Assembly (NCBI GenBank): GCA_016718655.1 | Contig: JADKCV010000018.1 | Span: 19,009 to 83,008, forward strand | DNA length: 64,000 bases | Direction of reading: 5' to 3' | From: Flavobacteriales bacterium | GTDB taxonomy: Bacteria > Bacteroidota > Bacteroidia > Flavobacteriales_F > PHOS-HE28 | Part shown: positions 10,557 to 51,094 of the stretch, piece after piece | How the letters are laid out: the number at the start of each line of letters is the position of its first letter | Position numbering within the stretch: position 1 is the first letter of the stretch | The notes under the pieces: model-generated | Told to the model about the DNA's origin: nothing | The model's input: only the letters and a program-made list of their open reading frames with translations | The model's database searches: none | Program-made: the position numbers and the translations under genes

Positions 10557-13013
10557 ATGACCCACAACCGACTCTCCTTTGCCCTTCTTGCGGCAGGCTC
10601 GTTGGCCAGCGCCACGGCCTGGTCACAAGCCCGCGTACAAGTCATCCACAACTGCGCCGATGCGGCTGCCGCTGTGGTGGACGTTTACATCAATGGTGGT
10701 GCCGAGCCAGCCATTGATGATTTCGCCTTCCGCACCGCAACTCCCTACATCGACCTGCCGGCAGGTGTGGACTTGGAGATCGGTATCGCACCGGGCACCA
10801 GCGCGGGCCCCCAGGACATCATCCCTGGCCTCACCTTCACCTACAACCTGGCTGATGGCGAGACCTACGTGCTGGTGGCCAATGGCATCGTGAGCCCAGT
10901 AGGGTACTCACCTGCCCCTGCTTTCGGCCTTGACGTGTTCGCCCCTGGACGTGAGGCTTCTGCTGTCGCCGGCAACGTGGACATCCTGGTCCTGCACGGC
11001 AGCACCGATGCCCCGACTGTTCAAGTAGCAGAGACCGCCGTGCTCGGTGGCGCCGTGGTGGTGCCTCCCTTCAGCTTCGGTGAGTTCAGCGCGGACTACC
11101 TCGAAGTACCTGCCGTGGACCTGACCTTGGAAGTGCAACTGCCCGATGGCACCCCCGTGGTAGCCTACGACGCACCGCTCGCCACCTTGGGCTTGGCCGA
11201 CGCTGCGATCGTCGCTGTGGCCTCTGGCTTCCTGGCCCCTGCCAACAATAGCAATGGTCCTGGCTTCGGTGTCTGGGTGGCCCTGCCTAGCGGCGGTCCC
11301 CTGGTACAACTTCCCTTGGCCACCGAGCCCAGCGCACGTGTGCAGATCATCCACAACAGTGCCGATGCGGCCGCTGCCGTGGTCGACATCTACATCAATG
11401 GAGGTGACGAGCCCGCTGTGAACGACTTCGCCTTCCGCACCGCAACCCCCTTCATCGACCTGCCCGCAGGTGTTGACCTGGAGATCGGTATCGCCCCTGG
11501 CACCAGCACCGGTCCTGAGGACATCATCGCTGCACTGAACACCACCGTCAACTTGGAAGATGGTGAGACCTACGTGGTCGTGGCCAACGGTATCGTGAGC
11601 CCAAGCGGATACAACCCTGCCCCTGCTTTCGGTCTGGACGTTTTCGCGCCCGGTCGTGAAGGAGCCAGCGTATCCGGCAATACGGACATCCTCGTGCTTC
11701 ACGGCAGCACTGATGCCCCTACCGTGCAAGTGGCAGAGACCGCAGTACTCGGTGGCGCCGCGGTGGTGCCCCCGTTCAGCTTCGGTGAGTTCAGCGCGGA
11801 TTATTTGGAAGTGCCTGCCGTGGACCTGACCCTTGAGGTGCAGTTGCCCGATGGTACCCCGGTGGTCGCTTACGATGCACCCCTCGCCACTTTGGGCCTG
11901 GCTGACGCAGCGCTCGTAGCCGTGGCCTCCGGCTTCTTGGCTCCTGCCAACAATAGCAACGGTCCTGCTTTCGGTATCTGGGTGGCCCTGCCAAGCGGTG
12001 GTCCCTTGGTAGAGCTGCCCTTGGCCACCGAGCCCAGCGCGCGCGTGCAGATCATCCATAACAGTGCCGATGCGGCCGCTGCAGTGGTTGACATCTACAT
12101 CAACGGTGGTGATGAACCTGCCGTGAACGACTTCGCATTCCGCACCTCCACCCCGTTCATCGACCTGCCCGCAGGTGTGGACCTGGAGATCGGTATCGCC
12201 CCTGGCACCAGCACCGGCCCCCTGGACATCATCACCGCGCTCAACACCACGGTGAACCTGGAAGATGGTGAGACCTACATCGTAGTGGCCAACGGTATCG
12301 TTAGCGCAACCGGCTACAACCCCGCTCCTGCGTTCGGCCTGGACATCTTCGCCCCCGGTCGCGAGGCTGCTGCCACAGCAGGCAACGTCGACATCCTTGT
12401 CCTGCATGGCAGCACCGATGCACCCACCGTGCAAGTGGCAGAGACCGCCGTGCTCGGTGGTGCCGTGGTGGTGCCTCCCTTCAGCTTCGGTGAATTCAGC
12501 GCCGACTACTTGGAAGTACCTGCTGTTGACCTGACCTTGGAAGTGCAATTGCCCGATGGTACCCCTGTGGTGGCCTATGATGCACCCCTCGCTGCCTTGG
12601 GCTTGGCGGATGCAGCACTCGTTGCGGTCGCTTCAGGCTTCCTTGCACCCGCGAACAATAGCAATGGTCCCGGTTTCGGTATCTGGGTTGCTTTGCCCAG
12701 CGGTGGCGCCATGTTGCCGCTCGACCTCGCTACGGGGATCGAAGAGTCCAGCTTCATCAGCAGCTTGACCGTCTTCCCGAATCCTGTGAATGACATGCTC
12801 TTCATCGACCTGAACAGCACGGAGAACGCGCAGGCTGAGATCCGGATCATGGATATGACCGGCCGCGAGGTCCGCAACCTGGCCAGCCGCAGCATCGCTG
12901 CCGGTGAGAGCCGTGTGGCAGTGGATGTGAGCGACCTGGACAATGGCAGCTACCTGGTGTCCATCCAGGGCAAGGGTACCAGCCGTTCCATTCCTGTGCA
13001 AGTGGTTCGATAA
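10557..13013 (+). CDS. DUF4397-repeat surface protein with a T9SS type-A CTD
   Basis: Signal peptide; three 235-aa repeats beginning ARVQ(V/I)IHN, each with LVLHGSTDAPTV; CTD VFPNPVND...DMTGREV...GSYLVSI. Confidence 0.8.
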   Translation: MTHNRLSFALLAAGSLASATAWSQARVQVIHNCADAAAAVVDVYINGGAEPAIDDFAFRTATPYIDLPAGVDLEIGIAPGTSAGPQDIIPGLTFTYNLADGETYVLVANGIVSPVGYSPAPAFGLDVFAPGREASAVAGNVDILVLHGSTDAPTVQVAETAVLGGAVVVPPFSFGEFSADYLEVPAVDLTLEVQLPDGTPVVAYDAPLATLGLADAAIVAVASGFLAPANNSNGPGFGVWVALPSGGPLVQLPLATEPSARVQIIHNSADAAAAVVDIYINGGDEPAVNDFAFRTATPFIDLPAGVDLEIGIAPGTSTGPEDIIAALNTTVNLEDGETYVVVANGIVSPSGYNPAPAFGLDVFAPGREGASVSGNTDILVLHGSTDAPTVQVAETAVLGGAAVVPPFSFGEFSADYLEVPAVDLTLEVQLPDGTPVVAYDAPLATLGLADAALVAVASGFLAPANNSNGPAFGIWVALPSGGPLVELPLATEPSARVQIIHNSADAAAAVVDIYINGGDEPAVNDFAFRTSTPFIDLPAGVDLEIGIAPGTSTGPLDIITALNTTVNLEDGETYIVVANGIVSATGYNPAPAFGLDIFAPGREAAATAGNVDILVLHGSTDAPTVQVAETAVLGGAVVVPPFSFGEFSADYLEVPAVDLTLEVQLPDGTPVVAYDAPLAALGLADAALVAVASGFLAPANNSNGPGFGIWVALPSGGAMLPLDLATGIEESSFISSLTVFPNPVNDMLFIDLNSTENAQAEIRIMDMTGREVRNLASRSIAAGESRVAVDVSDLDNGSYLVSIQGKGTSRSIPVQVVR
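10629..12740 (+). repeat. Intragenic tandem triplication with a 705-nt period
   Basis: Repeat units start at 10629, 11334 and 12039. The protein is near-identical between units and many nucleotide differences are synonymous. Confidence 0.95.
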
Positions 13014-37727: not shown

Positions 37728-37770
37728 GGTACTTTGTCTTGCATAGTACCAACCCATGCCCGTATGTTTG
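37728..37770 (+). promoter_or_regulatory. padR promoter (-33 TTG 37739-41, -7 TATGTTTG 37763-70) overlapped by palindrome GGTACT-N11-AGTACC
   Basis: 21-nt spacing between the -33 and -7 boxes; the 37728-37750 palindrome covers the -33 box. Confidence 0.65.
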
Positions 37771-37797
37771 CATCGTCAAGTACTAGATACGAACCCC

Positions 37798-38136
37798 ATG
37801 AACGTCGAGAACACCAAAGCGCAGATGCGGAAGGGGGTATTGGAGTACTGCATCCTGAGCATCCTGGCACAGGGAGAGCTGTATCCATCGGACATCATCA
37901 GCAAGCTGAAGGAGGCGAAGCTGATCGTGGTGGAAGGCACGCTGTACCCCCTGCTGACCCGGTTGAAGGATGCAGGCCTCCTCACCTACCGCTGGGAGGA
38001 ATCGCGTAGCGGCCCACCCCGCAAATACTACAAGCTCACCACCGTGGGCGATAAGTTCCTCACCGAGCTCGACCAGACCTGGGACGAGCTGAGCCAAGCC
38101 GTCAAGAAGACCACCCGGAAGAACGTACAACGATGA
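37798..38136 (+). CDS. PadR family transcriptional regulator
   Basis: QMRKGVLEYCIL, EGTLYPLLTRL, WEESRSGPPRKYY. Confidence 0.95.
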   Translation: MNVENTKAQMRKGVLEYCILSILAQGELYPSDIISKLKEAKLIVVEGTLYPLLTRLKDAGLLTYRWEESRSGPPRKYYKLTTVGDKFLTELDQTWDELSQAVKKTTRKNVQR

Positions 38137-39932
38137 AAAAGACCCTCACAGCCAACATCAGCGGAACGGTGTTCCACATCGAGGAGGACGCCTATGATCG
38201 CTTGCACCGCTACCTGAACACCATCCGCTCCCAATTCACGGGCACGGACGGTCGGGAGGAGATCATGGCCGACATCGAATCGCGTATCGCGGAGCTCTTC
38301 ACGGAGCGTTTGGACGGCCGTCGCCAGGTGGTCTCCATCGACGATGTGGAGCACGTCATCGGCATCATGGGCCAACCCGAGGACTACATGATGGGCGAAA
38401 ACGCCGGAGGCGAGCAGCGAAGCACCGGAAGCGAACGGTCGGACAAAGGCCCCAATTGGACCATGGGCGAGGCCGGCCGTCGCAGCGGTAAGCGCTTGTT
38501 CCGCGATCCGGAGGATAAGTGGGTGGGCGGTGTATTGGGCGGTGTGGGAGCCTACTTCAACATCGACCCGTTGATCCTGCGCCTCATCTACCTCGTGTTC
38601 CTGTTCCTGGGCTTCGGTTTCATCCTGTACTTGATCCTCTGGATCGTGGTGCCCAAGGCCGATTCCGCAGCGGACATGCTACAGATGCGCGGAGAGCCGG
38701 TGACGGTCGATAACATCAAGCGAATGTTCGAGGAAGGTGCCGAGCGTTTCCAGCAAGGCTCACGTACCGTGGCCAACGAGGCCGAGGAGATGGGTCGCCG
38801 CTGGAGCCAAAGTGGCCAGAAATGGGGTCAGGGCGCCGGGCGCGATCTGGAGGACGGTATCAAGCGACTGCTCTCGGTGATCGGCAAGGTCATCGGCGTG
38901 GCCTTCCTGGTGGTCGGTTCCATCATCACCGTCGGCATGCTGGGCGCATTGATCGGTGGCGGCACCATCACTTACGACAACCTCACCGGCCTCGGCACCA
39001 CCAGCTTGTTCGATCTCGGTGCCGTGGTGTTCGACCACACGTCGCAAGCCATGTGGTTCATCACTTCCATCCTACTGCTCGTCATCATTCCGACCATTGG
39101 CCTGATCATCGGTGGGTTACGACTGGTCACAGGTGCCAAAGCTCCGCAGTGGACGGGGTGGGTACTATCCATCGGCTGGACCGTGGCGCTCATCGTGGCG
39201 TTGATCATCGGATCCAAAGTGGGTAACGACTTCAGCAGCGACCAGACCACGGTGGACGAGGTGCCACTGATGCAGCCCACGGGCGAGACCCTCTTCCTGG
39301 ACATCCACGACATGCGCGGCAACGGTGGCGACTGGTCGGTGAAGTACGACGATGGCCGCGTGGACTGGGATATGGACGGCCTGAAGCTGACAGCGGACAG
39401 CATCCATGGTGCATGGGCCGACCTGGACGTGGTGCAGAGCCCGGACAGCCTCTACCACCTTATGGTGGAGCGCCGCGCCAATGGCCGCACGGACAAGATG
39501 GCGCTGGCACGTGCCTCGCACACGGCCTTCACCTACCTGCAGGAGGATTCGCTCGTGCGTTTCTCACCCTGGGTGGACATGCCCAAGGCGGACAAGCTGC
39601 GCGCCCAATCCGTGAAGTTCGTGATACAGGTGCCCGTGGGTAAGGCGGTCCATTTCAAGGGCGGCACGGGCCTGCTGTTGGACGATGTGGACAATGTGAG
39701 CAACACCTGGGACCAGGACATGGTGGGCCGCACCTGGACCATGACCCGTTTCGGATTGAACGACAAGGTGCGCCCGGAAGAAGTAGACAACGAGGTGATC
39801 TCACCTGCGGACCAACCCGGTACCGCACCGCAAGTACCATCTGAAGCACCGGAACCACGCCCCACCACGGTGGACATACGTACGACAGCCACGCTGCCCA
39901 ACCTGCTGGACATGCTGGTGCCCCGAAGCTGA
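38133..39932 (+). CDS. PspC domain-containing envelope-stress protein (Bacteroidota type)
   Basis: ATGA overlap with padR; MKKTLTANISG...DIESRIAELF; KRLFRDPEDKWVGGVLGG (PspC); TM hairpins; C-terminal beta-rich domain. Confidence 0.9.
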   Translation: MKKTLTANISGTVFHIEEDAYDRLHRYLNTIRSQFTGTDGREEIMADIESRIAELFTERLDGRRQVVSIDDVEHVIGIMGQPEDYMMGENAGGEQRSTGSERSDKGPNWTMGEAGRRSGKRLFRDPEDKWVGGVLGGVGAYFNIDPLILRLIYLVFLFLGFGFILYLILWIVVPKADSAADMLQMRGEPVTVDNIKRMFEEGAERFQQGSRTVANEAEEMGRRWSQSGQKWGQGAGRDLEDGIKRLLSVIGKVIGVAFLVVGSIITVGMLGALIGGGTITYDNLTGLGTTSLFDLGAVVFDHTSQAMWFITSILLLVIIPTIGLIIGGLRLVTGAKAPQWTGWVLSIGWTVALIVALIIGSKVGNDFSSDQTTVDEVPLMQPTGETLFLDIHDMRGNGGDWSVKYDDGRVDWDMDGLKLTADSIHGAWADLDVVQSPDSLYHLMVERRANGRTDKMALARASHTAFTYLQEDSLVRFSPWVDMPKADKLRAQSVKFVIQVPVGKAVHFKGGTGLLLDDVDNVSNTWDQDMVGRTWTMTRFGLNDKVRPEEVDNEVISPADQPGTAPQVPSEAPEPRPTTVDIRTTATLPNLLDMLVPRS

Positions 39933-40111
39933 ACCTTGCCGCTCCGCACGGCTGGCGCAACGAGGGATGCGACCTGCCGCCAGACGCCCTGCGTCCCCGC
40001 CGAAAGGAGGGTCGCGGGGCGGCAATGTTCGGGGGAGTTGGATCGGTTCCGCGCACGCCACGACCTCTACCTTCGCACTTCACGCTCATTCGACCCTGTA
40101 CCACCACTCCC

Positions 40112-41152
40112 ATGACCAAAGCCGCCAAGATCAAGGCCTTCAACCCCAACGACCCCGCCTCGGCAGACGCCGGTATCTACGGGTTGCCCTTCACCGCTGC
40201 TGAGTGCGATATCGTGCTGGTGCCGGTGCCGTGGGAAGTGACCACCAGCTACGGCGGGGGTACGTCACTGGGGCCTGATGCCATCCTGGAGGCCAGTTTC
40301 CAGGTGGATCTTTTCAATCCCGAATTCCCGGAGCTGTGGAAACGTGGGATACACATGGATGAGCTGCCCGAAGCGCTGCTGGAACAGAGCAAGGCCTTGA
40401 AGAAGGAAGCCAAGCACGTGATCGACCTGCTTGTGAACGGAGGCGATGCGAAGAAGAAGGCCAAGGCCGATAAGGCCCTCGCCCGCATCAACGCCGAATG
40501 TGCGGTGATGAACGATTGGGTGGAGCAGCGTTGCGCCTATTGGCTCGACCAAGGCAAGTTGGTGGGGCTGGTGGGAGGCGACCACAGCACCCCGCTGGGG
40601 TTCTTCCGCGCGCAAGCCGCCCGGCACAAGAAGTTCGGCATTCTGCACATCGACGCCCACCTCGATCTGCGCATCGCCTACGAAGGCTTCACCTACAGCC
40701 ACGCTAGTATCCTCTACAACACGCTGCCGCTGAAGTCGGTGGAGCGCATTGTGAGCGTGGGTATCCGCGACTTCTGCGAGCAGGAGAACGACCTCATCGT
40801 GAAGCATCCGTACCGCTTGAAGGTGGTGCGCAGCGCGGACATCCGTCGGCAGCAATACGGCGGTATCACCTGGAAGGAGCAGTGCGATGCCATCATCGAT
40901 GCATTGCCGGAGAAGGTCCACATCACCTTCGACATCGACGGCCTCGACCCGACGTTGTGTCCGAACACGGGAACACCCGTACCGGGCGGCTTCCAGTTCG
41001 AGGAGGCCACCTACCTGCTCTCGCGCTTGGCCGCCAAGCGCACCGTCATCGGCTTCGACCTGGTGGAGGTGTCGCCCGGCAAGGATGAGTGGGACGCCAA
41101 CGTGGGTGCGCGCCTGCTGTTCCACTTGTGCGGTGTGTTGGCCAAGCGCTGA
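40112..41152 (+). CDS. Agmatinase family ureohydrolase
   Basis: VPWEVTTSYGGGT..GP, GGDHS, HIDAHLD, FTYSHAS, TFDIDGLDP...TGTPVPGG, FDLVEV. Confidence 0.92.
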   Translation: MTKAAKIKAFNPNDPASADAGIYGLPFTAAECDIVLVPVPWEVTTSYGGGTSLGPDAILEASFQVDLFNPEFPELWKRGIHMDELPEALLEQSKALKKEAKHVIDLLVNGGDAKKKAKADKALARINAECAVMNDWVEQRCAYWLDQGKLVGLVGGDHSTPLGFFRAQAARHKKFGILHIDAHLDLRIAYEGFTYSHASILYNTLPLKSVERIVSVGIRDFCEQENDLIVKHPYRLKVVRSADIRRQQYGGITWKEQCDAIIDALPEKVHITFDIDGLDPTLCPNTGTPVPGGFQFEEATYLLSRLAAKRTVIGFDLVEVSPGKDEWDANVGARLLFHLCGVLAKR

Positions 41153-41166
41153 TCCAAGGTCCCTCC

Positions 41167-41951
41167 ATGGTCAAGGCCTTGCTCCGTCGCCTGCTCGATG
41201 AACGGCAGCGGTACCTGCTGGGCCGGCGCTGGGTGGACCTGCGCACGTGGCTTTTCCGATCGGACCTGACGGCACTTGCGCGGTTCTATGGCACCGACAA
41301 ATGGGGGCGGCATTTCTACACGCCGCACTACCAGCAGCACTTCGCACCGTTCCGTAAGCGCCCCATTACCCTGTTGGAGATCGGCGGGGGCGGATGCGAT
41401 CCGCGCAACGGGGACACAGCCTGCGCATGTGGAAACGCTACTTCCCGAAGGGCTCCATCGTTTCGTTGGACATCCAGGAGAAGTCGTGGTTGGAGGAGCC
41501 CCGCATCCGCATCCATCGCGGCAGCCAAGTGGACCTGCCGTTCCTGGACAGCGTCCTCGCCGAGCACGGCGCACCGGACCTGATCATCGACGATGGCAGC
41601 CACATCAACGCGCACATCATCACCACCTTCAAGCACCTGTTCCCCCGCTTGAAGGAGGGGGGCTACTACGTGATCGAGGACACCCAGACCTCCTATTGGC
41701 CCGAATTCGGTGGTGATAGCCAGGACCTGCACAGCGCGCCCACGGCCATGAACCACTTCAAGGCCCTCGTGGACGGCATGAACCATGCGGAATACCGCGT
41801 GCCAGGCTACTCGCCCTCCTACTGTGACCGGCACATCGTGGCCATGCACTTCTACCACAACCTCATCTTCATTCGCGGAAGAAGGAGGAGGGGGTTCGAA
41901 CTGAACAATTGGCCCGGCCAGCTTGAATGCCTCCCAGGCGCAAGCCATTGA
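41167..41951 (+). CDS. Class I SAM-dependent methyltransferase (MycE/TylE sugar O-methyltransferase-like); -1 frameshift at ~41410-41413
   Basis: YGTDKWG.HFY, LLEIG.GG, then (G4 to G5) GHSLRMWKRYFP, DLIIDDGSH, GGYYVIEDTQTSYW. The 3' end may also be affected. Confidence 0.8.
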
Positions 41952-42351
41952 AGCCCCCGAGGCGGACTACCTCTACGTGGATACCTCGCGCATCGCCGGT
42001 GCAGGCCTCGGGCTCTTCACCGCGATCCCTATCCATCGCGGTGAGGTGGTGGCTGTGTATACCGGTGAACGGTTCTCGAGAAAAGAGGCACGTCTTCGTG
42101 CAATACGCGGGGAGGATTCCTACTTCGTGACCTTGATGGGCGGCGACACCCTCGACAGCATGCATAGTGACTGCTTCGCCAAGTATGCCAATGATGTGGA
42201 AGGTCCCGCCACCTCACTCCTGCGGAATAATTCAGTGATCACACTGGATGGATCCGGAAGGCCCTGTGTGATGGCCACGCGCCGGATCCCAGCGGGCGGT
42301 GAAGTGTATGTGGCCTACGGCAAGCCCTATTGGGCCCAGCGCATGGTATAG
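41923..42351 (+). CDS. Bacterial SET-domain protein-lysine methyltransferase-like protein
   Basis: SRIAGAGLGLF (motif I), FAKYAND, ATRRIPAGGEVYVAYG..YW. Confidence 0.88.
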   Translation: MNASQAQAIEAPEADYLYVDTSRIAGAGLGLFTAIPIHRGEVVAVYTGERFSRKEARLRAIRGEDSYFVTLMGGDTLDSMHSDCFAKYANDVEGPATSLLRNNSVITLDGSGRPCVMATRRIPAGGEVYVAYGKPYWAQRMV

Positions 42352-43143: not shown

Positions 43144-43246
43144 ACTCGGTGCGTTGCCTACGTGCTGGTCCAACAGTCCCCTTTTGATGAAAAGCAGGGT
43201 GATACCGTATGGTGTTCGGATGGTCTTCCTTGCTTTACGTCCGAAC

Positions 43247-44671
43247 ATGTCAGCCATTCGACACCTGCTCTGGTACACGTTCCTGTTCGGGGCTGCGTTA
43301 CACGCTACCGGACAGTCGACCTGGCGGGCAGATGGCTTGCTGCGGACCTGGCCAGTGCAACAGGCCATGGAACGAACAATTAACCGGCCGCAGGGTGGCG
43401 TCATATCCGCCCTGGACACCCGCGACCTGGCCCGGACGTTGCGCGCTGGACATCCGGACCTGCCGGTATTCGCGGATAGCGCTGTGACCCGACTTGTGGA
43501 AGGCTATGGACAGGAACACCGCGAACACCTGCGGGTGATGCTCGGTGTGTTCGCTACGTATGAGCCGTTCCTGGAAGCCCAAGTGCGTGCTGCCGGACTA
43601 CCGGAAGAAGTGAAATACCTGCCATTGGCCCTGTCCGGCATGAACCCGCTGGCCGCATCTCCAAGTGGTGGCGCCGGGCCCTGGCGCTTGACCCGTTCAG
43701 TGGCAGTGCGGTACGGCTTGGTAGTGAACAACGGTATCGACGAGCGCTATGACATCCGATCAAGCACGTTCGCAGCCATGAACCATGCCCGCGACTTGCA
43801 GCAACAATATCCGACGCTGGAATTGGCCCTCATCGCGTTCGCCTGTGGACCGGCCAACCTCACACGTGCACGGCAACGCAGCGGTGGCGCTACCGGTATG
43901 CAAGCCCTTCACCCGCATATGGACCTGCCGGAGCAGGACATTCTGCCCACCTGGATGGCAATGATGTATCTGGCGGAAGAGGCATCCACGCTCGGCATCA
44001 GGCCATTCATTCCGGGATCGGCCGAGCCGGTGGATACCGTACGGACCACTCGTGCTTGGCGCTTGGCCGGGATCGAGGAGGCATTGGGAATACCGGCTGC
44101 ACAATTGCGTTGGTTGAACCCTGTGATCTGTGGGACCCATGTGCCTGCTTACCATGCCCTCTTGTTACCGGAAGGCGGTCGCGCGCGGTTCGAAGCCATG
44201 ACAGACAGCTTGATCAGCCACGAAGCAGCGGAACGCGAGCAAGTGGCCACGCTGACCACTGGAAGTGATGAGGTACAGCGGTTACCGGATGGGCGCGAAG
44301 CGACCTACCATCGGGTGAGGCCAGGCGACCAGCTCGGTAGGATCGCTTCACGCTACGGTGTGGGCTTATCAGAGTTGAAGGCGTGGAACCAATTGAAGAA
44401 CGATCATATCGAAGTGGGTGAACTCCTCACCGTCTACGTGACCACCGGTGTGCGCGAGCGAACCGAGGGAACCGCTGGGGAAGATGATCGCGATGTGGCG
44501 ACAAAACAAGGGACGAAGGACCCGACATTCGCATGGTATACCGTGAAGCGCGGGGATTCCCTCTATTCCATCGCCAAACGGCACAGCGGTGTGAATGCCG
44601 ATGACCTGATGCGCCTGAACAACATCGGCCCGAACATCAAGGCTGGGCAGCGCATCAAGATCCCCAAGTGA
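43247..44671 (+). CDS. MltD-like lytic transglycosylase/LysM protein with a degenerate active site
   Basis: Signal peptide; SLT-like segment GLPEEVKYLPLALS...DERYDIRSSTFAA; two LysM domains (YHRVRPGDQLGRIA, WYTVKRGDSLYSIA). Confidence 0.85.
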   Translation: MSAIRHLLWYTFLFGAALHATGQSTWRADGLLRTWPVQQAMERTINRPQGGVISALDTRDLARTLRAGHPDLPVFADSAVTRLVEGYGQEHREHLRVMLGVFATYEPFLEAQVRAAGLPEEVKYLPLALSGMNPLAASPSGGAGPWRLTRSVAVRYGLVVNNGIDERYDIRSSTFAAMNHARDLQQQYPTLELALIAFACGPANLTRARQRSGGATGMQALHPHMDLPEQDILPTWMAMMYLAEEASTLGIRPFIPGSAEPVDTVRTTRAWRLAGIEEALGIPAAQLRWLNPVICGTHVPAYHALLLPEGGRARFEAMTDSLISHEAAEREQVATLTTGSDEVQRLPDGREATYHRVRPGDQLGRIASRYGVGLSELKAWNQLKNDHIEVGELLTVYVTTGVRERTEGTAGEDDRDVATKQGTKDPTFAWYTVKRGDSLYSIAKRHSGVNADDLMRLNNIGPNIKAGQRIKIPK

Positions 44672-46149
44672 GCATGCGGCCGGCACACACGTTACTCTTT
44701 CTGCTCCTGGTCCTTGGCACGTTGAGTGTGTTGGGGTTGCTCTGGCCGGTCGCCGGTGTGGAGGTCGCTGGAACGGTCATCCGCATGCCTTCTCCACGCA
44801 CCTTGTTCGTTCAAGATGCAGCAACCGTTGTGGACATCAGCGCGATCGAAGCCCTGAAGACCGATAGCCTACCGGGTATGGACAGCACATCCGTAGCGCT
44901 GGACACCGTTCCGACCGGACGTCCCTTCGTACTCGATACGAGTGCACTCCCCCCGCTCCAGGAACGCATCGCATTGCACTATCCCAACGGGGATCGCTCG
45001 GTCTTGTACGGCCTGTTCGATGCCTTGCGCAACGCGGGTTCCGGCGCGGCCCGGGTACGTGTGCTGCACTACGGTGATTCCCAGATCGAAGGGGACCGGA
45101 TCACCTCGTACATCCGGCACAAGTTGCAATCGCAGTTCGGTGGTCAGGGACCGGGGTTGGTATCGGTGGCGGACATCACGCCGTTCTTCAGTGTGGAGCG
45201 TATCCTTTCGGATAATTGGCAGCGCTACAGTGTGATGGGCCGCAAGCCCCGCGGCCTTCACCACGACCGTTTTGGTGCACTGGGGTCGTTCAGCCGCTTC
45301 ACCCCCATCCTGCCCGATAGCGTAGGTCCGGACACGATCATCCACAACGCGTCGTTGCTGCTTCGTCCGGAGCCACGGGCTTATGGCAAGGCACGTACAT
45401 ACGACAGGTGTCGGCTCTTCCTGGGTTGGCATCGGGGTCCGCTCACGATCGAGGTCCTGCATGAAGGCACAACGGTCTCGACCGAGGAGGTACCTCCCCA
45501 GGCGAACCTCATCATGAAGGAATGGCCTGTGCCTGCGGGCTCCGGCACGTTGGAGATCCGCTTCACCGGTGCCGACAGCCCGGATGTTTTCGGTGTATCG
45601 CTGGAAGGCCGACAAGGCGTGACCGTGGACAACCTCGCAATGCGCGGAGGTGCTGGCTACGAGTTCGGTCGAATGGACCAGGACCTGCTGCGCGGCATGT
45701 ATGGGGCACTTTCGCCGGACCTGTTGATCCTACAATTCGGCGGCAACGTACTGCCCAACATCACCAGCGCCGATCAGGCCGAACGTTATGGAAGCTTCTT
45801 CGGCGGGCAGATCGCGCGATTCAAACGGATGATACCCGGCGTCGCGGTCATCGTCATCGGTCCCAGTGATATGAGCGTGAAAGAGGGTGAGTACTTCGTG
45901 ACCCGCCCGTTCCTGGAGGAGGTGAACGCCGCCATGAAGCGCAACACCTTGGCCCAGGGCGCGGTGTTCTGGGACATGTACGCCGCGATGGGTGGACGCA
46001 ACAGCATGGTCAGCTGGGTGGAGGCCGATCCTCCCTTGGCCGCTACGGACTACACGCACTTCAGCCCACAGGGTGCGCGCAAGGTGGGCGAACTGTTCTG
46101 GACGGCGTTCATCAACGACCTGGCGGCCTATCACAAGCAGCACCCATGA
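44668..46149 (+). CDS. SGNH/GDSL family protein (PatB/Ape-like O-acetyltransferase or esterase)
   Basis: N-terminal anchor; VLHYGDSQIEGD; ILQFGGN; DYTHF (DxxH); GTGA overlap with the upstream stop. Confidence 0.85.
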   Translation: MSMRPAHTLLFLLLVLGTLSVLGLLWPVAGVEVAGTVIRMPSPRTLFVQDAATVVDISAIEALKTDSLPGMDSTSVALDTVPTGRPFVLDTSALPPLQERIALHYPNGDRSVLYGLFDALRNAGSGAARVRVLHYGDSQIEGDRITSYIRHKLQSQFGGQGPGLVSVADITPFFSVERILSDNWQRYSVMGRKPRGLHHDRFGALGSFSRFTPILPDSVGPDTIIHNASLLLRPEPRAYGKARTYDRCRLFLGWHRGPLTIEVLHEGTTVSTEEVPPQANLIMKEWPVPAGSGTLEIRFTGADSPDVFGVSLEGRQGVTVDNLAMRGGAGYEFGRMDQDLLRGMYGALSPDLLILQFGGNVLPNITSADQAERYGSFFGGQIARFKRMIPGVAVIVIGPSDMSVKEGEYFVTRPFLEEVNAAMKRNTLAQGAVFWDMYAAMGGRNSMVSWVEADPPLAATDYTHFSPQGARKVGELFWTAFINDLAAYHKQHP

Positions 46150-47417
46150 AACGCAGCCGTTCCCACTTCTTTCGGCGCACACCTGCCATGCCTGCCGCCC
46201 TGCTCCTTGTGTGCATACAGGGCGCATGCGCACAGGAGGACATGGCCCGCTTGAAGGACCTGCCATTCATCGGCCATGGGTCCAACCGCATCGAATTACG
46301 CGGCGACAGTGCGGATTGGAAAGGCCTTCACGCGAAGCTGGATCGCCTGCAATTCCAAGGCGAAGGACGTATCGACATCCTACATATCGGCGGTTCTCAC
46401 GTTCAGGCGGACATGTGGAGCATGCAGATGCGGCATCGGGCGCAGACCATGGCCCCTGGGCTGAGGGGTGCGCGGGGCTTCATCTTTCCATACGCCATGG
46501 CCAAGAGCAACAATCCCTATTGGTACGAACCGATATTCACGGGGGCTTGGACCGCAGTGCGCAACGTCAACCGTGCGGACAGCAGTAGCCTGGGTCTTGC
46601 CGGAATATCGGTCACCACACGGGACAGTGTGGCCGACCTACGCGTGAGCTTCCGTGGTGAGGTCTACCCAGGGTACACCTTCAACCGGGCCACCGTCCTG
46701 CATCGGATGGACAGCAGCATGACCGTGGCCGCTTGGACACGCGATAGCACCGTACGCATCACCACCACGACCGACACTGCTGCCTGGACGACCACCTTCC
46801 ACTTCGATCGGTACTTGGATACGCTGAACCTGCGCTTCACCCGGACCGACAGTGCTCACGCCCTCTTCACCCTGCATGGCCTTGTGCTCGACAGCGACGA
46901 CCCTGGGATGGTCCTGCATGCGAGCGGGGTCAATGGGGCCAGCACCACCAGTTGGCTGCGATGCCAGCGCTTCACGCAGGACATGCGCCTCATCACGCCC
47001 GACCTCGCGATCCTTTCCATTGGCATCAACGATGCACATGATCCGGACTTCGATGCCGATCGGTTCAAGCGCAACTACCGGGAGCTGATCACCCGCATCA
47101 AAGAAGCCTCACCGGACGCAGCGATCCTGCTCACCACCAATACGGATAGTTACATGAAGCGCAAGGTGCCCAACCGCAATGCCGAGGTCGTGCGTCGGGT
47201 CATGCAGGAGCTATCGACCGAGACCGGTGCGGGGGTGTGGGACGCTCTGGGGGTGATGGGTGGTGTGGGCGCCATCAAGCAATGGGAAGCCGTGGGCCTT
47301 GCCAAGCGCGATCGCATCCATATGACGCGGGAAGGCTATGCCTTGCTCGGCGACCTGCTCATGGACGCGTGGATGGACCTCTACGATGCGCACCTCAAGC
47401 GCCTTGCTCATCGGTGA
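46146..47417 (+). CDS. Second SGNH/GDSL family protein
   Basis: ILHIGGSHVQAD; GVNGA; SIGINDA; DRIHM (DxxH); ATGA overlap. Confidence 0.85.
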   Translation: MKRSRSHFFRRTPAMPAALLLVCIQGACAQEDMARLKDLPFIGHGSNRIELRGDSADWKGLHAKLDRLQFQGEGRIDILHIGGSHVQADMWSMQMRHRAQTMAPGLRGARGFIFPYAMAKSNNPYWYEPIFTGAWTAVRNVNRADSSSLGLAGISVTTRDSVADLRVSFRGEVYPGYTFNRATVLHRMDSSMTVAAWTRDSTVRITTTTDTAAWTTTFHFDRYLDTLNLRFTRTDSAHALFTLHGLVLDSDDPGMVLHASGVNGASTTSWLRCQRFTQDMRLITPDLAILSIGINDAHDPDFDADRFKRNYRELITRIKEASPDAAILLTTNTDSYMKRKVPNRNAEVVRRVMQELSTETGAGVWDALGVMGGVGAIKQWEAVGLAKRDRIHMTREGYALLGDLLMDAWMDLYDAHLKRLAHR

Positions 47418-47429
47418 TCACAAGCGAAC

Positions 47430-49100
47430 ATGGACCTGTTCACCTCACTGGACCTTGGAAGCATCATCGGTTACGATCCGCGTGATCCGATCATCTTCAC
47501 CCGCGGCTTCTTCTGGGCTTTCTTCGCTGTTGTCCTTGCGGTGTTCGCGATGGTCTACCGGAGTCACGGACCACGGAGCTTGTGGCTCTTTGCTGTGAGC
47601 CTCTTCTTCTATTGGAAGACAAGTGGACTGTTCGTAGGTCTGCTCCTCTTTTCGATCGTTCTCGACCATCGTCTCGCGCTGTGGAGCGGAGCCACGGTGG
47701 ATCGTCGGCGCAAGCAACTGCTTCTGGCCTTGAGCGTAACGGTCAACCTTTCCATCCTACTCTACTTCAAGTATGCCACGTTCGTGGTGGAGAACCTGAA
47801 CGCCCTACTAGGCACCACCTTCGAGCCGGTGAACCTCCTTGCCCGTTGGGCCAATGCAGCATGGGATGCGCACTTCGTGGAGAACAAGATCCTGCTGCCG
47901 GTGGGCATCAGCTTCTACACCTTCCAATGCATGAGCTACGCCATCGATGTGTATCGAGGCGATCTTCGACCGGTGCGGAGGCTGGTGGATTTCGGCTTCT
48001 ACGTGAGCTTCTTCCCACAGCTTGTGGCTGGACCGATCGTGCGCGCTTCGGAATTCATCCCTCAGATCGAACGGCCTTACGCCTTGACCCGTGTGCAGTT
48101 CGGTCTGGCCGTGTTCTGGATCCTGAATGGAATGTTGAAGAAGATGGTCATCGGTGACCACATCGCGGTGAACTTCATCGACCGGGTGTTCGCCGACCCC
48201 CTGCGCTACACGGGCTTCGAGACCATGATGGCCCTGTTCGGCTATTCACTGCAGGTCTATGCCGACTTCAGTGGATACACGGATGTGGCGATCGGGGTGG
48301 CCCTCTTGATGGGGTTCACACTCACCAAGAACTTCAACAGCCCCTACAAGGCGACCAACGTGGGCGAGTTCTGGAAGCGCTGGCACATGAGCTTGAGCAC
48401 GTGGTTGCGTGACTACCTCTACATCCCCATGGGCGGCAACCGCAGTGGTTCGCTATTCTCCTGGATCATGCTGGGCATCATCGGAGCTGCGGTCATCCTG
48501 CTCACAGGCTGGTGGTGGTTGCCGGTGGTCTACTTGTCCGTGGTGGCCATGGTCACCGTACTGGCCAAGGTTGCGCCCGGCACACACGGCTTCATCACCA
48601 CCAACACCAACCTGATGATCACCATGCTCATCGGAGGCCTGTGGCATGGAGCCAGTTGGCTGTTCGTCATCTGGGGTGGCCTCAATGGTTTGGGCCTGGT
48701 GGTGTACAAACTTTGGAAACGCATCAGCCCTTGGGAGCATACACACCATTGGCTGGCCCATGCTTGGAAGGTCCTGATCACCTTCACGTTCATCACCTTC
48801 ACGCGGATCTGGTTCCGCAGTGATTCGCTTACCACCGCGGAACACATCCTTCATCAATTGGGAGGACCGTTCGGATGGGATGTCATCGGCGATGTGATCG
48901 TGGGCTTCAGGACCGTATTCACGTTGATGTGTCTTGGTATGATCATCCATTGGTTGCCCGAACGCTGGAAGGAGCGTTACCGCAACTGGTTCGCGGGTCT
49001 GCCGTTGTGGGCCATGGGCCTGTTCTGTGTGCTGGCCGTGGTCCTCATCCACCAAACAGTGACTGCGGACATGGTGCCCTTCATCTACTTCCAGTTCTGA
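47430..49100 (+). CDS. MBOAT family O-acyltransferase (AlgI/PatA-like)
   Basis: LPVGISFYTFQ, SFFPQLVAGPI, YADFSGYTD, NFNSPY, FWKRWHMSLSTWLRDYLYIP, GLWHG, FIYFQF. Confidence 0.95.
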   Translation: MDLFTSLDLGSIIGYDPRDPIIFTRGFFWAFFAVVLAVFAMVYRSHGPRSLWLFAVSLFFYWKTSGLFVGLLLFSIVLDHRLALWSGATVDRRRKQLLLALSVTVNLSILLYFKYATFVVENLNALLGTTFEPVNLLARWANAAWDAHFVENKILLPVGISFYTFQCMSYAIDVYRGDLRPVRRLVDFGFYVSFFPQLVAGPIVRASEFIPQIERPYALTRVQFGLAVFWILNGMLKKMVIGDHIAVNFIDRVFADPLRYTGFETMMALFGYSLQVYADFSGYTDVAIGVALLMGFTLTKNFNSPYKATNVGEFWKRWHMSLSTWLRDYLYIPMGGNRSGSLFSWIMLGIIGAAVILLTGWWWLPVVYLSVVAMVTVLAKVAPGTHGFITTNTNLMITMLIGGLWHGASWLFVIWGGLNGLGLVVYKLWKRISPWEHTHHWLAHAWKVLITFTFITFTRIWFRSDSLTTAEHILHQLGGPFGWDVIGDVIVGFRTVFTLMCLGMIIHWLPERWKERYRNWFAGLPLWAMGLFCVLAVVLIHQTVTADMVPFIYFQF

Positions 49101-49114
49101 GGACCTCTTCGTGA

Positions 49115-51094
49115 TCACTTACGCACCGGCGGGAAGAAGAACACCCACGGGTGCCGTTTGAAGTGTTGCCAAGCTGCACCTGCGATGGGCATCACCTCAC
49201 CAAAGGCAACACCCCGTGAGCGGAGTGCAAGGACCATGGAAAGACCGAAGCTGACCAGGAAATTGAACAGCCCGATGAGCCCGATACCCAATACCGGAAC
49301 GATGACCATGGCCGGGGTTACGTGCCAGTCCATCCCCACCAATCCCAACCCAAGGTTGCCTGCAGCGAAAGTGATATGCCTGATGTCCAGTGGTAGTCCG
49401 AAAAAAGCCCCGACCATGCCCACGGAGCCCATGAACACCGCGAACCAGAAATTGCTGATGATGCCCCCTGCATTGGCTTCATAGTATGCTGCCAGCGCTT
49501 GACGCCGCTTTGCGGGTAGAAGCAATTTGAGCACCGGATGAGCGGCGATGCGTTGGGGCACCCGGGCATGCTTGGACCGATTGGAGACGCTGCCTGCGAT
49601 GATACCGGAGAGGAACAGGAATACCCCGGCCAAGGCAGCATGCGGGATCGCCAGTGACCGGAAGGGGTCCAGTTCATGGATCATTTTCCCGGCTTTATGC
49701 GCGAAAAGCTCGGGGCCGAAAAGCGTATTCCATCCATACGCAAGACCAACCGCGACCGGAAAAGCCATCACCACGTTCCCCACAAAGGCGATGAATTGGG
49801 ATCGCCACACCCGGGCCAATAGGTCGACAAGGGCCGCATAACGTTCCGCAGAAGGTGCCTGCCGACCTTCGTCGAGCGTGGCAGCGATGGTGGCCGCGGT
49901 CATGGCCGGTTGTTTGGTGGCCAATGTGAGATGCAACAGGTAGATCCCGATGAAGGCCCATGCGTAGTTCAAGCTGTACAGCATGGCATGGCCAAAGGGA
50001 CTGGCCTCCAGTGTACCTGCCCACGCTTTGAGAACACATGCCAAGGCCACCAACGCCCCCCCACCCAAGGCCGTCCGCAACATGTGTCCGTATTCACCGG
50101 AGGTGGAGGTGATGTAGTGCTCTCCCGCACGACCGGCATGGCCAGTGATCTCGCGGGCCACGACCTGTGTGGACCGGTCGATGAACCCGAGCACATGCGT
50201 ACTACCTGCACTGAGCCTGACCAACTCACGGAGGAGCTGGACCTGTTTGCTGCGCTGAGCGCGGTCGGGATCGATCACCAGCAAGCCCAATACCTGCTCC
50301 ATTCGGTCCAGTAGCCGCTCCAGGATGATCAGTTGTTGGTTCGCCGAGAAGCCCATGCCGAGTTGCTCGGTATTGGCATAGGCCCGTTCGATGAACGTTC
50401 TGCATTGGCCCAGTAGGAGCAACACATGGCGATAGCCTTCGTCCTGATGATCACGAGAGCGTTCGCCCAACCGCACACGCGCGATGTGATCATCCATCTC
50501 ATCGGCCAAGGCAACGAACGGATTGTCGAGGTTCTCATAGGTGGGTACCATCCGCATGACCTCATCCTCGAATGCCTTACCCGCTGCACGCAGACCCAGT
50601 ACTTGCAAGGCAAAGACGAGCTCCTCCACGTGCCAGCGAATGGAACCTTCATCGTTCAACAGCTCCAAAAGGTCCAGCAGCCGCACCAGGTCCTGTTCAT
50701 CCAAGCAATCCACCCATTCCGCATCCCGCTCACGGAAGAACACGTTCACCAGGAGGTGATCGCTGGTACCTTCCTCGGGCTGCGGCGGTAGTACCTTGTA
50801 AACCAAGCGCCGCTTCAACTCCCGCCAGAAAGCACCGCCAGGAATACCCGCATCGGTGAAGGTGCGGTGGAACCGCATTCCGGAGGTGAGCCTTCGCAGG
50901 TAGTCGGCTAGCCCGGCCCGAAGGCCTTGATCCTGCTCCAAAAGAGCGATCAAGTGCTTCACGCGTGCGGATGCATCTTGCGGTCGACGGGAGGAGGGCC
51001 GTATGGCCTCGACCAATTCTGCAAGCAGATCGATATCGTGGCCTTGGTGCCGGGCGATGGCAAGCAGCACATCGAGCAAGTGTGAATGGGCCAT
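49115..51094 (-). CDS. Gcr/'site-specific recombinase' family integral membrane protein
   Basis: LVYKVLP, GEHYIT, SLNYA, LATKQPAMTAA, RSQFIAFVGNV, GLPLDIRHITF; multi-TM C-terminal half. Confidence 0.85.
   Translation of the reverse strand: MAHSHLLDVLLAIARHQGHDIDLLAELVEAIRPSSRRPQDASARVKHLIALLEQDQGLRAGLADYLRRLTSGMRFHRTFTDAGIPGGAFWRELKRRLVYKVLPPQPEEGTSDHLLVNVFFRERDAEWVDCLDEQDLVRLLDLLELLNDEGSIRWHVEELVFALQVLGLRAAGKAFEDEVMRMVPTYENLDNPFVALADEMDDHIARVRLGERSRDHQDEGYRHVLLLLGQCRTFIERAYANTEQLGMGFSANQQLIILERLLDRMEQVLGLLVIDPDRAQRSKQVQLLRELVRLSAGSTHVLGFIDRSTQVVAREITGHAGRAGEHYITSTSGEYGHMLRTALGGGALVALACVLKAWAGTLEASPFGHAMLYSLNYAWAFIGIYLLHLTLATKQPAMTAATIAATLDEGRQAPSAERYAALVDLLARVWRSQFIAFVGNVVMAFPVAVGLAYGWNTLFGPELFAHKAGKMIHELDPFRSLAIPHAALAGVFLFLSGIIAGSVSNRSKHARVPQRIAAHPVLKLLLPAKRRQALAAYYEANAGGIISNFWFAVFMGSVGMVGAFFGLPLDIRHITFAAGNLGLGLVGMDWHVTPAMVIVPVLGIGLIGLFNFLVSFGLSMVLALRSRGVAFGEVMPIAGAAWQHFKRHPWVFFFPPVRK

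Follow-up and report, generated by a model that had tools for sequence, protein, structure and literature searches.

We analysed a stretch of 64,000 nucleotides from an uncultured Flavobacteriales bacterium (assembly GCA_016718655.1, contig JADKCV010000018.1), called the window below, and within it the region from 43247 to 49100, which holds four co-directional open reading frames on the plus strand, named here G1 to G4. They have the Pfam domains SLT and two LysM (G1), GDSL/SGNH (G2 and G3), and MBOAT (G4). G1 (43247-44671, 474 amino acids) codes for a predicted secreted MltD-like pseudo-lytic-transglycosylase (Pfam SLT, 8.5e-11; LysM, 5e-30), G2 (44668-46149, 493 amino acids) for a membrane-anchored Ape1-type SGNH protein, G3 (46146-47417, 423 amino acids) for a secreted Ape1-type SGNH protein with a cleavable signal peptide, and G4 (47430-49100, 556 amino acids) for an MBOAT protein of the PatA/AlgI/DltB type. 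An alternative start of G1 is the ATG at 43187, as in the 494-amino-acid database protein P0001, instead of 43247. The first-pass annotation of this DNA, made from its letters, had described a tight coupling of the transglycosylase-like gene to two SGNH genes and an MBOAT gene, and this was found, with the ATGA overlap between G2 and G3 (46146-46149) and with G4 placed after G3, from which it is separated by 12 nt. The same annotation had G1 and G2 overlapping by the sequence GTGA. This 4-nt overlap exists if G2 starts at the GTG at 44668, whereas a start at the ATG at 44674 leaves a 2-nt gap after the TGA of G1 and no overlap. The ATG is probably the likelier start, judging from an invariant Met3 and from the 491-amino-acid database protein P0121, and the coupling of G1 and G2 is tight with either start. 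The putative operon is bordered by a divergent DsbA-like gene on one side and by a convergent PF10136 gene on the other. A scan for terminators and sigma-70 promoters gave nothing informative, and promoters of Bacteroidota are outside its scope.

The G1 protein is made up, in order, of a signal peptide, an N-terminal helical region, an SLT-like domain (residues 106-250, 43562-43996) with a remodelled former active site, a linker domain of the alpha/beta type, and a pair of LysM domains, all on the plus strand. The first LysM domain (approximately residues 352-398, 44300-44440) matches Pfam LysM and aligns to the LysM of LytE and AtlA, and the second (residues 431-473, 44537-44665) matches Pfam LysM over positions 1-43 of 43 and also the LysM domain of E. 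coli MltD, 1e0g. The nearest NCBIfam family is murein transglycosylase D, but the score of 110 bits is far below the family cut-off of 508. An AlphaFold2 model of G1 that was built on 48 orthologues has a mean pLDDT of 90.8, and its best PDB matches by Foldseek are the structures of Pseudomonas aeruginosa MltD (PaMltD; 8rhf, 8rhe and 8rhi), with E down to 3e-17 and a TMt of 0.56-0.64. As modelled, the MltD fold is intact in G1.

In PaMltD, E144 is the catalytic residue of the ES motif and Q162, Y214, N215, and Y249 are its partners; G159LWQ162 is motif II and lies on the clamping loop, Y214 and N215 contact subsites -1 and +1, and Y249 orients E144 (PMC11327851). When G1 was aligned with PaMltD (8rhe) by phmmer, 'LPLALS' fell under 'LPVIES', 'GPWR' under 'GLWQ', and 'AFACG' under 'AYNAG', and all five active-site residues are replaced: E144 by L129 (codon CTG, 43631-43633, two substitutions from GAG), Q162 by R147 (43685-43687), Y214 and N215 by F198 and A199 (43838-43843), and Y249, the Tyr that hydrogen-bonds the Glu, by I232 (43940-43942). 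S145, G159, W161, and the D-x-R motif of PaMltD are kept. Thus, among the features of family 1D (MltD), G1 has the SLT fold and the C-terminal LysM domains and lacks the Glu of 'ES', 'GLWQ', the Tyr-Asn of 'AYNxG', and Y249. The Foldseek list for G1 also includes MltE E64Q and Slt E503Q, which were deposited in the PDB as inactive mutants and, therefore, even a conservative change at the Glu abolishes the activity of family 1 enzymes. Going by its sequence, G1 is almost certainly a disarmed MltD that is no longer able to cut glycan. This had been claimed in the first-pass annotation from the same three motifs, and its reading of the CTG at 43631 as two substitutions away from a Glu codon is also correct. 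The motif AFACG was rightly read there but was wrongly placed, because the span given for it, 43838-43849, codes for FACG and A197 starts at 43835. A second, canonical MltD was not found within the 64-kb window.

A search of 5.8 billion proteins gave 48 clusters of G1 orthologues, 39-52% identical, from metagenome-assembled genomes labelled 'Flavobacteriales bacterium', and a score gap separates this group from the canonical MltD-type proteins that come next in the list. The catalytic Glu is absent in all 48 orthologues, which bears out the check on orthologues from this operon context that had been proposed earlier, and ES is present in all 10 canonical outgroup proteins. At the site of E144 there is Leu in 44 orthologues and Met in 4; at Q162, Met in 36, other residues in 11, and Gln in 1; at Y214, Phe in 39; at N215, Ala in 33, with Thr, Ser, Leu, and Cys also found; and at Y249, Val, Ile, Ala, and others. 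The 10 canonical proteins have E, Q, Y, N, and Y at these sites, and S145, G159, and W161 are retained in both sets alike. Mean column identity is 0.67 in the SLT-like domain and 0.66 and 0.79 in the LysM domains, 38 columns are invariant across the 48 sequences, and the three former active-site motifs, with column identities of 0.89-0.90, are among the most conserved six-residue stretches of G1. Since these motifs are among the best conserved, it would appear that the site has been kept for a new purpose and is not decaying.

The loss of the Glu is not confined to these orthologues. Among the top 150 matches of a profile of the clade to 1.84 billion representatives, 96 have the Glu, 39 could be aligned and are without it, and 15 match in LysM only. 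Many of the Glu-less matches form a second group with the pattern L-S...W-Q...[YF]-[TAS], in which the Glu and the Asn are gone and the Gln and both Tyr are often kept. The distant Glu-less subfamilies are only 27-30% identical to G1 and are still intact full-length open reading frames. Recent pseudogenisation or a sequencing error was ruled out because the loss is common to all 48 orthologues and to the distant subfamilies. Comparison of these sequences indicates that the loss is old. With the five sites masked, a neighbour-joining tree on BLOSUM62 distances put every one of the 66 non-redundant Glu-less sequences in one clade among the canonical MltDs of Bacteroidota; this single clade was not recovered by a Kimura-distance tree and its bootstrap support was 14/100. 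A single origin of the Glu loss is, on these trees, plausible. The JGI pipeline name 'membrane-bound lytic murein transglycosylase D' is carried by P0015, P0021-P0023, P0030, P0031, P0034, P0035, P0038, P0039, P0500, and P0501, and for these Glu-less proteins that name is very probably wrong.

The Glu-less proteins are linked to the acetylation genes and the Glu-bearing ones are not. In six loci of the clade to which the window belongs (L001, L002, L003, and L005 from a scan of the genome collection, and L081 and L083 from two genomes besides) G1, G2, G3, and G4 are found in the same order, and L004 has the block in part, its downstream DNA being limited. The two genomes outside the scan, one of them a complete 3.9-Mb chromosome, share the 4-nt overlap as well. 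Identities between close loci are 42-49% for G1, 53-63% for G2 and G3, and 73-75% for G4. The genes in seven distant Glu-less loci (L084-L090), where the Glu is replaced by L, C, or A, are directly upstream of genes for an SGNH protein of about 500 amino acids, an SGNH protein of about 410-440 amino acids, and an MBOAT protein, and these downstream genes are one-to-one orthologues of G2 (37-42% identity), G3 (41-51%), and G4 (47-56%). At the remaining loci of the genome-collection scan, of which 72 have the ES motif, no homologue of G2, G3, or G4 is present in flanks of up to 10 kb. These 72 and a canonical control, L091, make up the Glu-bearing set, for which linkage was judged within the flanks available. 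Linkage was found in 15 of the 16 Glu-less loci (14 with enough downstream DNA and one partial) as against none of the 73 Glu-bearing loci (Fisher p = 4e-16). The flanking genes vary between loci and, therefore, the four-gene block is the conserved unit.

The only Glu-less exception is L058, a separate and more degenerate lineage, in which an SLT and LysM protein (L058:9623-11113, in a Bacteroidota genome bin) has the motifs PAILTG, GIWAMS, and AYWKSPAY and its gene, which has no link to acetylation genes, is followed by genes for an MFS transporter and a prolyl oligopeptidase. With this counterexample the proposition that every Glu-less MltD-like protein is linked to an O-acetyl-peptidoglycan (OAP) cluster was rejected, and from L058 it may be that dead MltD-like proteins arose more than once. 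The control L091 (5657-9554), the one canonical locus that was looked up, has the arrangement parA-parB-DUF5683-mltD, and this locus may be the housekeeping source of the duplicated dead paralogue. Some of the distant loci have additional genes. A third, small SGNH gene coding for 241-289 amino acids is present just upstream of the pseudo-transglycosylase gene at L084:7100-7906, L085:7138-7863, L086:7028-7897, and L089:2151-2927, and nearby at L090:6272-7009; its product resembles PAF-acetylhydrolase-type and generic GDSL esterases and not Ape1, and the clade of the window is without it. In L087, whose pseudo-transglycosylase carries Cys in place of the Glu, a gene for a HAD-family hydrolase (12256-12903) separates the MBOAT gene from the second SGNH gene.

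At its N-terminus G2 has a transmembrane helix without an evident cleavage site, then a low-confidence linker of about 90 residues, and after this a split SGNH domain into which a beta-sandwich is inserted. Its catalytic residues S138, N360, D461, and H464 are intact, as are S84 (in GGSH), N295, D389, and H392 of G3, and in both proteins they are conserved in six orthologous loci. In phmmer searches Ape1 of Neisseria meningitidis (4k3u) was matched by G2 at 3e-14 and by G3 at 1.8e-15, in both cases with the N-terminal GDS block included, which is about 140-160 residues before the rest of the SGNH domain, and Ape1 of Campylobacter jejuni (8gkd and 8gld) was matched by G3 at 1e-10. An AlphaFold2 model of G2 (pLDDT 85.7) has as its top five Foldseek matches Ape1 of N. 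meningitidis and C. jejuni, with a TMt of 0.74-0.78 and E of 1e-19 to 1e-22, and the next match, at 5e-8, is 11 orders of magnitude weaker. By these matches both SGNH proteins are of the Ape1 type; sequence shows it for each of them, and for G2 the predicted fold does so too. They do not recognisably resemble PatB, and no chain named PatB or OatA was present among the PDB sequence matches of G2 and G3 or among the top 50 fold matches of the G2 model. G4 matches Pfam MBOAT at 9e-22 and DltB (6bug) at 1e-23, its nearest NCBIfam family is DltB, and its catalytic His406, in GGLWHGASW, lines up with the His of DltB and does not vary among seven sequences. The statement in the first-pass annotation that the catalytic residues of the SGNH and MBOAT proteins are intact thus holds, and it extends to the orthologues. 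Two features of an OAP cluster are therefore present, namely, a PatA-type MBOAT with its catalytic His and adjacent Ape1-family SGNH proteins, in which the SGNH domain is split by an inserted carbohydrate-binding module and the Ser/Asp/His triad is kept.

Clusters of this kind have been described. Weadge, Pfeffer and Clarke in 2005 reported the gene order ape1b-ape1c-pat(A) in B. thetaiotaomicron, B. fragilis, and P. gingivalis, and 27-69% O-acetylated peptidoglycan in two Bacteroides species (PMC1199599). The window and these clusters, which are from the same phylum, have in common a pair of Ape1-family SGNH genes with an AlgI/PatA-like MBOAT gene after them; this match rests on the description in the paper. 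The Bacteroides-type cluster is without Ape2 (PMC1199599), and in the window no gene of the Ape2 or PatB type could be recognised. They differ in that the gene described upstream of the Bacteroides clusters is one for cation efflux and not a transglycosylase-like one, and in that Ape1c is defined as being without an inserted segment whereas both SGNH proteins of the window carry the insert (PMC1199599). The SGNH-SGNH-MBOAT part is, therefore, largely a known kind of cluster in Bacteroidota, and the earlier suggestion that the module was undescribed in this phylum does not stand. A literature search found no description of a dead lytic transglycosylase or of a transglycosylase-like gene in an OAP cluster, which is not proof of absence. 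What appears to be new is the dedicated and conserved dead transglycosylase in a known OAP cluster.

The PatA-PatB-Ape1 system of Neisseria and Campylobacter is similar in that an MBOAT protein and periplasmic SGNH proteins act on the O-acetyl groups of N-acetylmuramic acid (MurNAc) (PMC12148441), but the place of PatB would be taken in the window by a second Ape1-type protein. More generally, MBOAT-SGNH pairs take acyl groups out of the cytoplasm and attach them to an extracytoplasmic polymer (PMC12148441). In Neisseria the lytic transglycosylase LtgA complexes with Ape1, and it stimulates and stabilises Ape1 on a substrate that LtgA itself cannot use (PMC7083599). In that system a protein with a lytic transglycosylase fold binds and enhances Ape1 independently of its own catalysis, and G1 may do likewise; LtgA, however, belongs to the active enzymes of family 1A and its gene is elsewhere in the genome, whereas G1 is, to judge from its residues, a dead family 1D (MltD-type) paralogue inside the operon. 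G1 shares with PaMltD (8rhe, 8rhf and 8rhi; PMC11327851) the catalytic-type domain, the alpha/beta linker, and the LysM repeats, and it is unlike MltD in having the five active-site residues replaced, no lipobox, and an OAP-operon context in place of the parAB-DUF5683 context of L091. A further likeness is to the dead LytM factors EnvC, NlpD, and DipM, in which a degenerate peptidoglycan-hydrolase fold, often with LysM, regulates autolysins (PMC10336132). Their fold is that of LytM metallopeptidases and not the goose-lysozyme-like SLT fold of G1, their clients are amidases and transglycosylases and not a putative O-acetyl transferase and esterase, and their regulatory role is proven whereas that of G1 is proposed here.

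From these likenesses we propose that the four genes form one operon, a Bacteroidota-type OAP cluster to which a dedicated pseudoenzyme has been added, and that G1 is a non-catalytic partner of the Ape1-like enzymes that would be held on peptidoglycan by its LysM domains. Taken jointly, we give this explanation a little better than an even chance. The transport of acetyl groups across the inner membrane would be the task of G4. G2, anchored in the membrane beside G4, would be the likelier acceptor of the acetyl groups and the transferase onto the C6-OH of MurNAc, which is the role of PatB, because it has an N-terminal transmembrane helix and no evident cleavage site; assigning the transferase from membrane anchoring is a guess. 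G3, which would be soluble in the periplasm because of its cleavable signal peptide, would be the likelier de-O-acetylase, which is the role of Ape1. G1 would be a duplicate of a housekeeping MltD kept on the sacculus by its LysM domains, its former active-site groove, conserved and now largely hydrophobic, would bind either a glycan strand, possibly an O-acetylated one, or an Ape1-like protein, and in this way G1 would position, stabilise, or activate the enzymes of acetylation and de-acetylation. What we infer is that peptidoglycan is the substrate, that G2 and G3 share the work in this way, and that G1 interacts physically with G2 or G3. If a duplicated MltD kept a partner function without catalysis, this would account for its strict linkage to the operon, for the coupling of its translation to that of G2, and for the selection acting on what was the active site. 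The earlier idea of a scaffold that delivers the acetylation machinery to the sacculus is compatible with the data.

Several points weigh against this proposal. Both G2 and G3 look like esterases and there is no recognisable transferase of the PatB type. The OAP clusters of Bacteroides and Porphyromonas were reported without an upstream transglycosylase-like gene (PMC1199599) and, therefore, the pseudoenzyme is not universally required. Sugar-contacting residues of the PaMltD groove are also changed in the clade of the window (T167 to V152, and probably Y195) and, therefore, binding of glycan by the SLT-like domain is not assured; what the groove binds may be a modified sugar or a partner protein and not plain glycan. 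Lastly, the position of D231 is D or E in 82% of the Glu-less representatives as against 10% of the canonical MltDs of Bacteroidota, and it adjoins the equivalent of Y249.

A different function for the same groove would be that of a reader or protector, with G1 sensing the acetylation state of MurNAc in the former -1 and +1 subsites and shielding the strand from active transglycosylases or external lysozymes; it would be expressed along with the acetylation genes without contacting their enzymes. Around the scissile bond and the C6-OH of MurNAc, PaMltD has the polar residues E144, Q162, N215, and Y249, for which the clade has Leu, Met, Ala, and Val; such a hydrophobic pocket would suit the methyl of an acetyl group, and the LysM domains are intact. 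This is, however, purely structural speculation, the translational coupling to the first SGNH gene is explained no better by it than by a complex, and the second group of Glu-less relatives keeps Q162, Y214, and Y249 so that not all of the family has the hydrophobic pocket. We consider a reader without enzyme contact unlikely, though worth keeping in mind.

It is more doubtful that the SGNH-SGNH-MBOAT set acetylates another polymer, such as an exopolysaccharide, a capsule, or a lipoglycan, and that G1 tethers this polymer or the machinery to peptidoglycan through LysM. MBOAT-SGNH pairs also modify alginate, cellulose, and teichoic acids (PMC12148441), and glycosyltransferase and sugar epimerase genes are 2-3 kb downstream in the window. 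But it is the four-gene block and not its flanks that is conserved from locus to locus, the G2 model matches Ape1 far better than it matches any other carbohydrate esterase (1e-19 to 1e-22 versus 5e-8), and the homologous cluster of Bacteroides is in species that have O-acetylated peptidoglycan (PMC1199599).

If G1 were still an enzyme, it would process glycan strands, perhaps specifically O-acetylated ones, with D231 or by a changed mechanism. The enrichment of D or E at D231 next to the Y249 equivalent and the strong conservation of the groove would fit with this. A scan of 141 columns of the SLT domain for acidic residues gained in the Glu-less family gave only D231, and as a relocated catalytic acid this sole candidate was rejected on sequence because it is not invariant (His, Ala, and others occur) and is not new, PaMltD itself having Asp there. 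In addition, five catalytic and orienting residues were lost together, mostly to hydrophobic ones, and family 1 transglycosylases with an E-to-Q change alone are inactive, as the titles of the PDB entries state. Retained catalysis is thus quite improbable, marginally more so than the acetylation of another polymer. The view of G1 as the decaying remnant of a duplicated MltD, carried in the operon without function, would agree with G1 being the fastest-evolving of the four genes in close loci but is effectively refuted by the intact full-length open reading frames in subfamilies down to 27% identity, the invariant columns, and the conservation of the former active-site motifs.

Returning to G1 as a non-catalytic partner, a wider form of the proposal is that the dead MltD paralogues found across the phylum are the first pseudo-lytic-transglycosylase regulators, obligatory peptidoglycan-bound subunits that bind Ape1-like enzymes or read O-acetyl-MurNAc and so control the site at which the wall is acetylated and de-acetylated. 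We put this forward tentatively, as a possibility that we hold to be less probable than not being so.

The other genes near the operon were also looked at. The convergent gene (49115-51094, minus strand) codes for a 659-amino-acid multi-pass membrane protein of PF10136 ('site-specific recombinase', E 4e-180), and a PF10136 gene is also near the operon in the related complete genome (L081:14727-15485). An arginase-family gene is upstream of the operon both in the window (40025-41152) and in L081, which makes for partial synteny. A 142-amino-acid SET-domain protein is encoded at 41923-42351 (plus strand) and overlaps the end of a methyltransferase-like open reading frame (41394-41951). Further upstream, at 37756-39932 (plus strand), a small open reading frame (37756-38136) overlaps by 4 nt the gene after it, which codes for a 599-amino-acid PspC-domain membrane protein with a C-terminal toast-rack domain, and this pair, a few kb upstream of the wall operon, looks like an envelope-stress module.

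O-acetylation of peptidoglycan governs both the autolysins of the cell and its resistance to lysozyme. To the open question of how the enzymes of acetylation and de-acetylation come to be directed to particular regions of the wall, the only known clue is the LtgA-Ape1 complex of Neisseria. If our proposal is true, the dead transglycosylase encoded in the operon would be a natural separation-of-function form of the LtgA-Ape1 partnership, and the question becomes testable because the dead partner has no lytic activity to confound the result. The SLT fold would then join the short list of wall-hydrolase folds that have been recycled as regulators and, if G1 is a regulator, it would be the counterpart, for the modification of glycan strands, of the LytM factors that control amidases. 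The finding also flags proteins in the databases that are labelled transglycosylase D and are almost certainly not transglycosylases.

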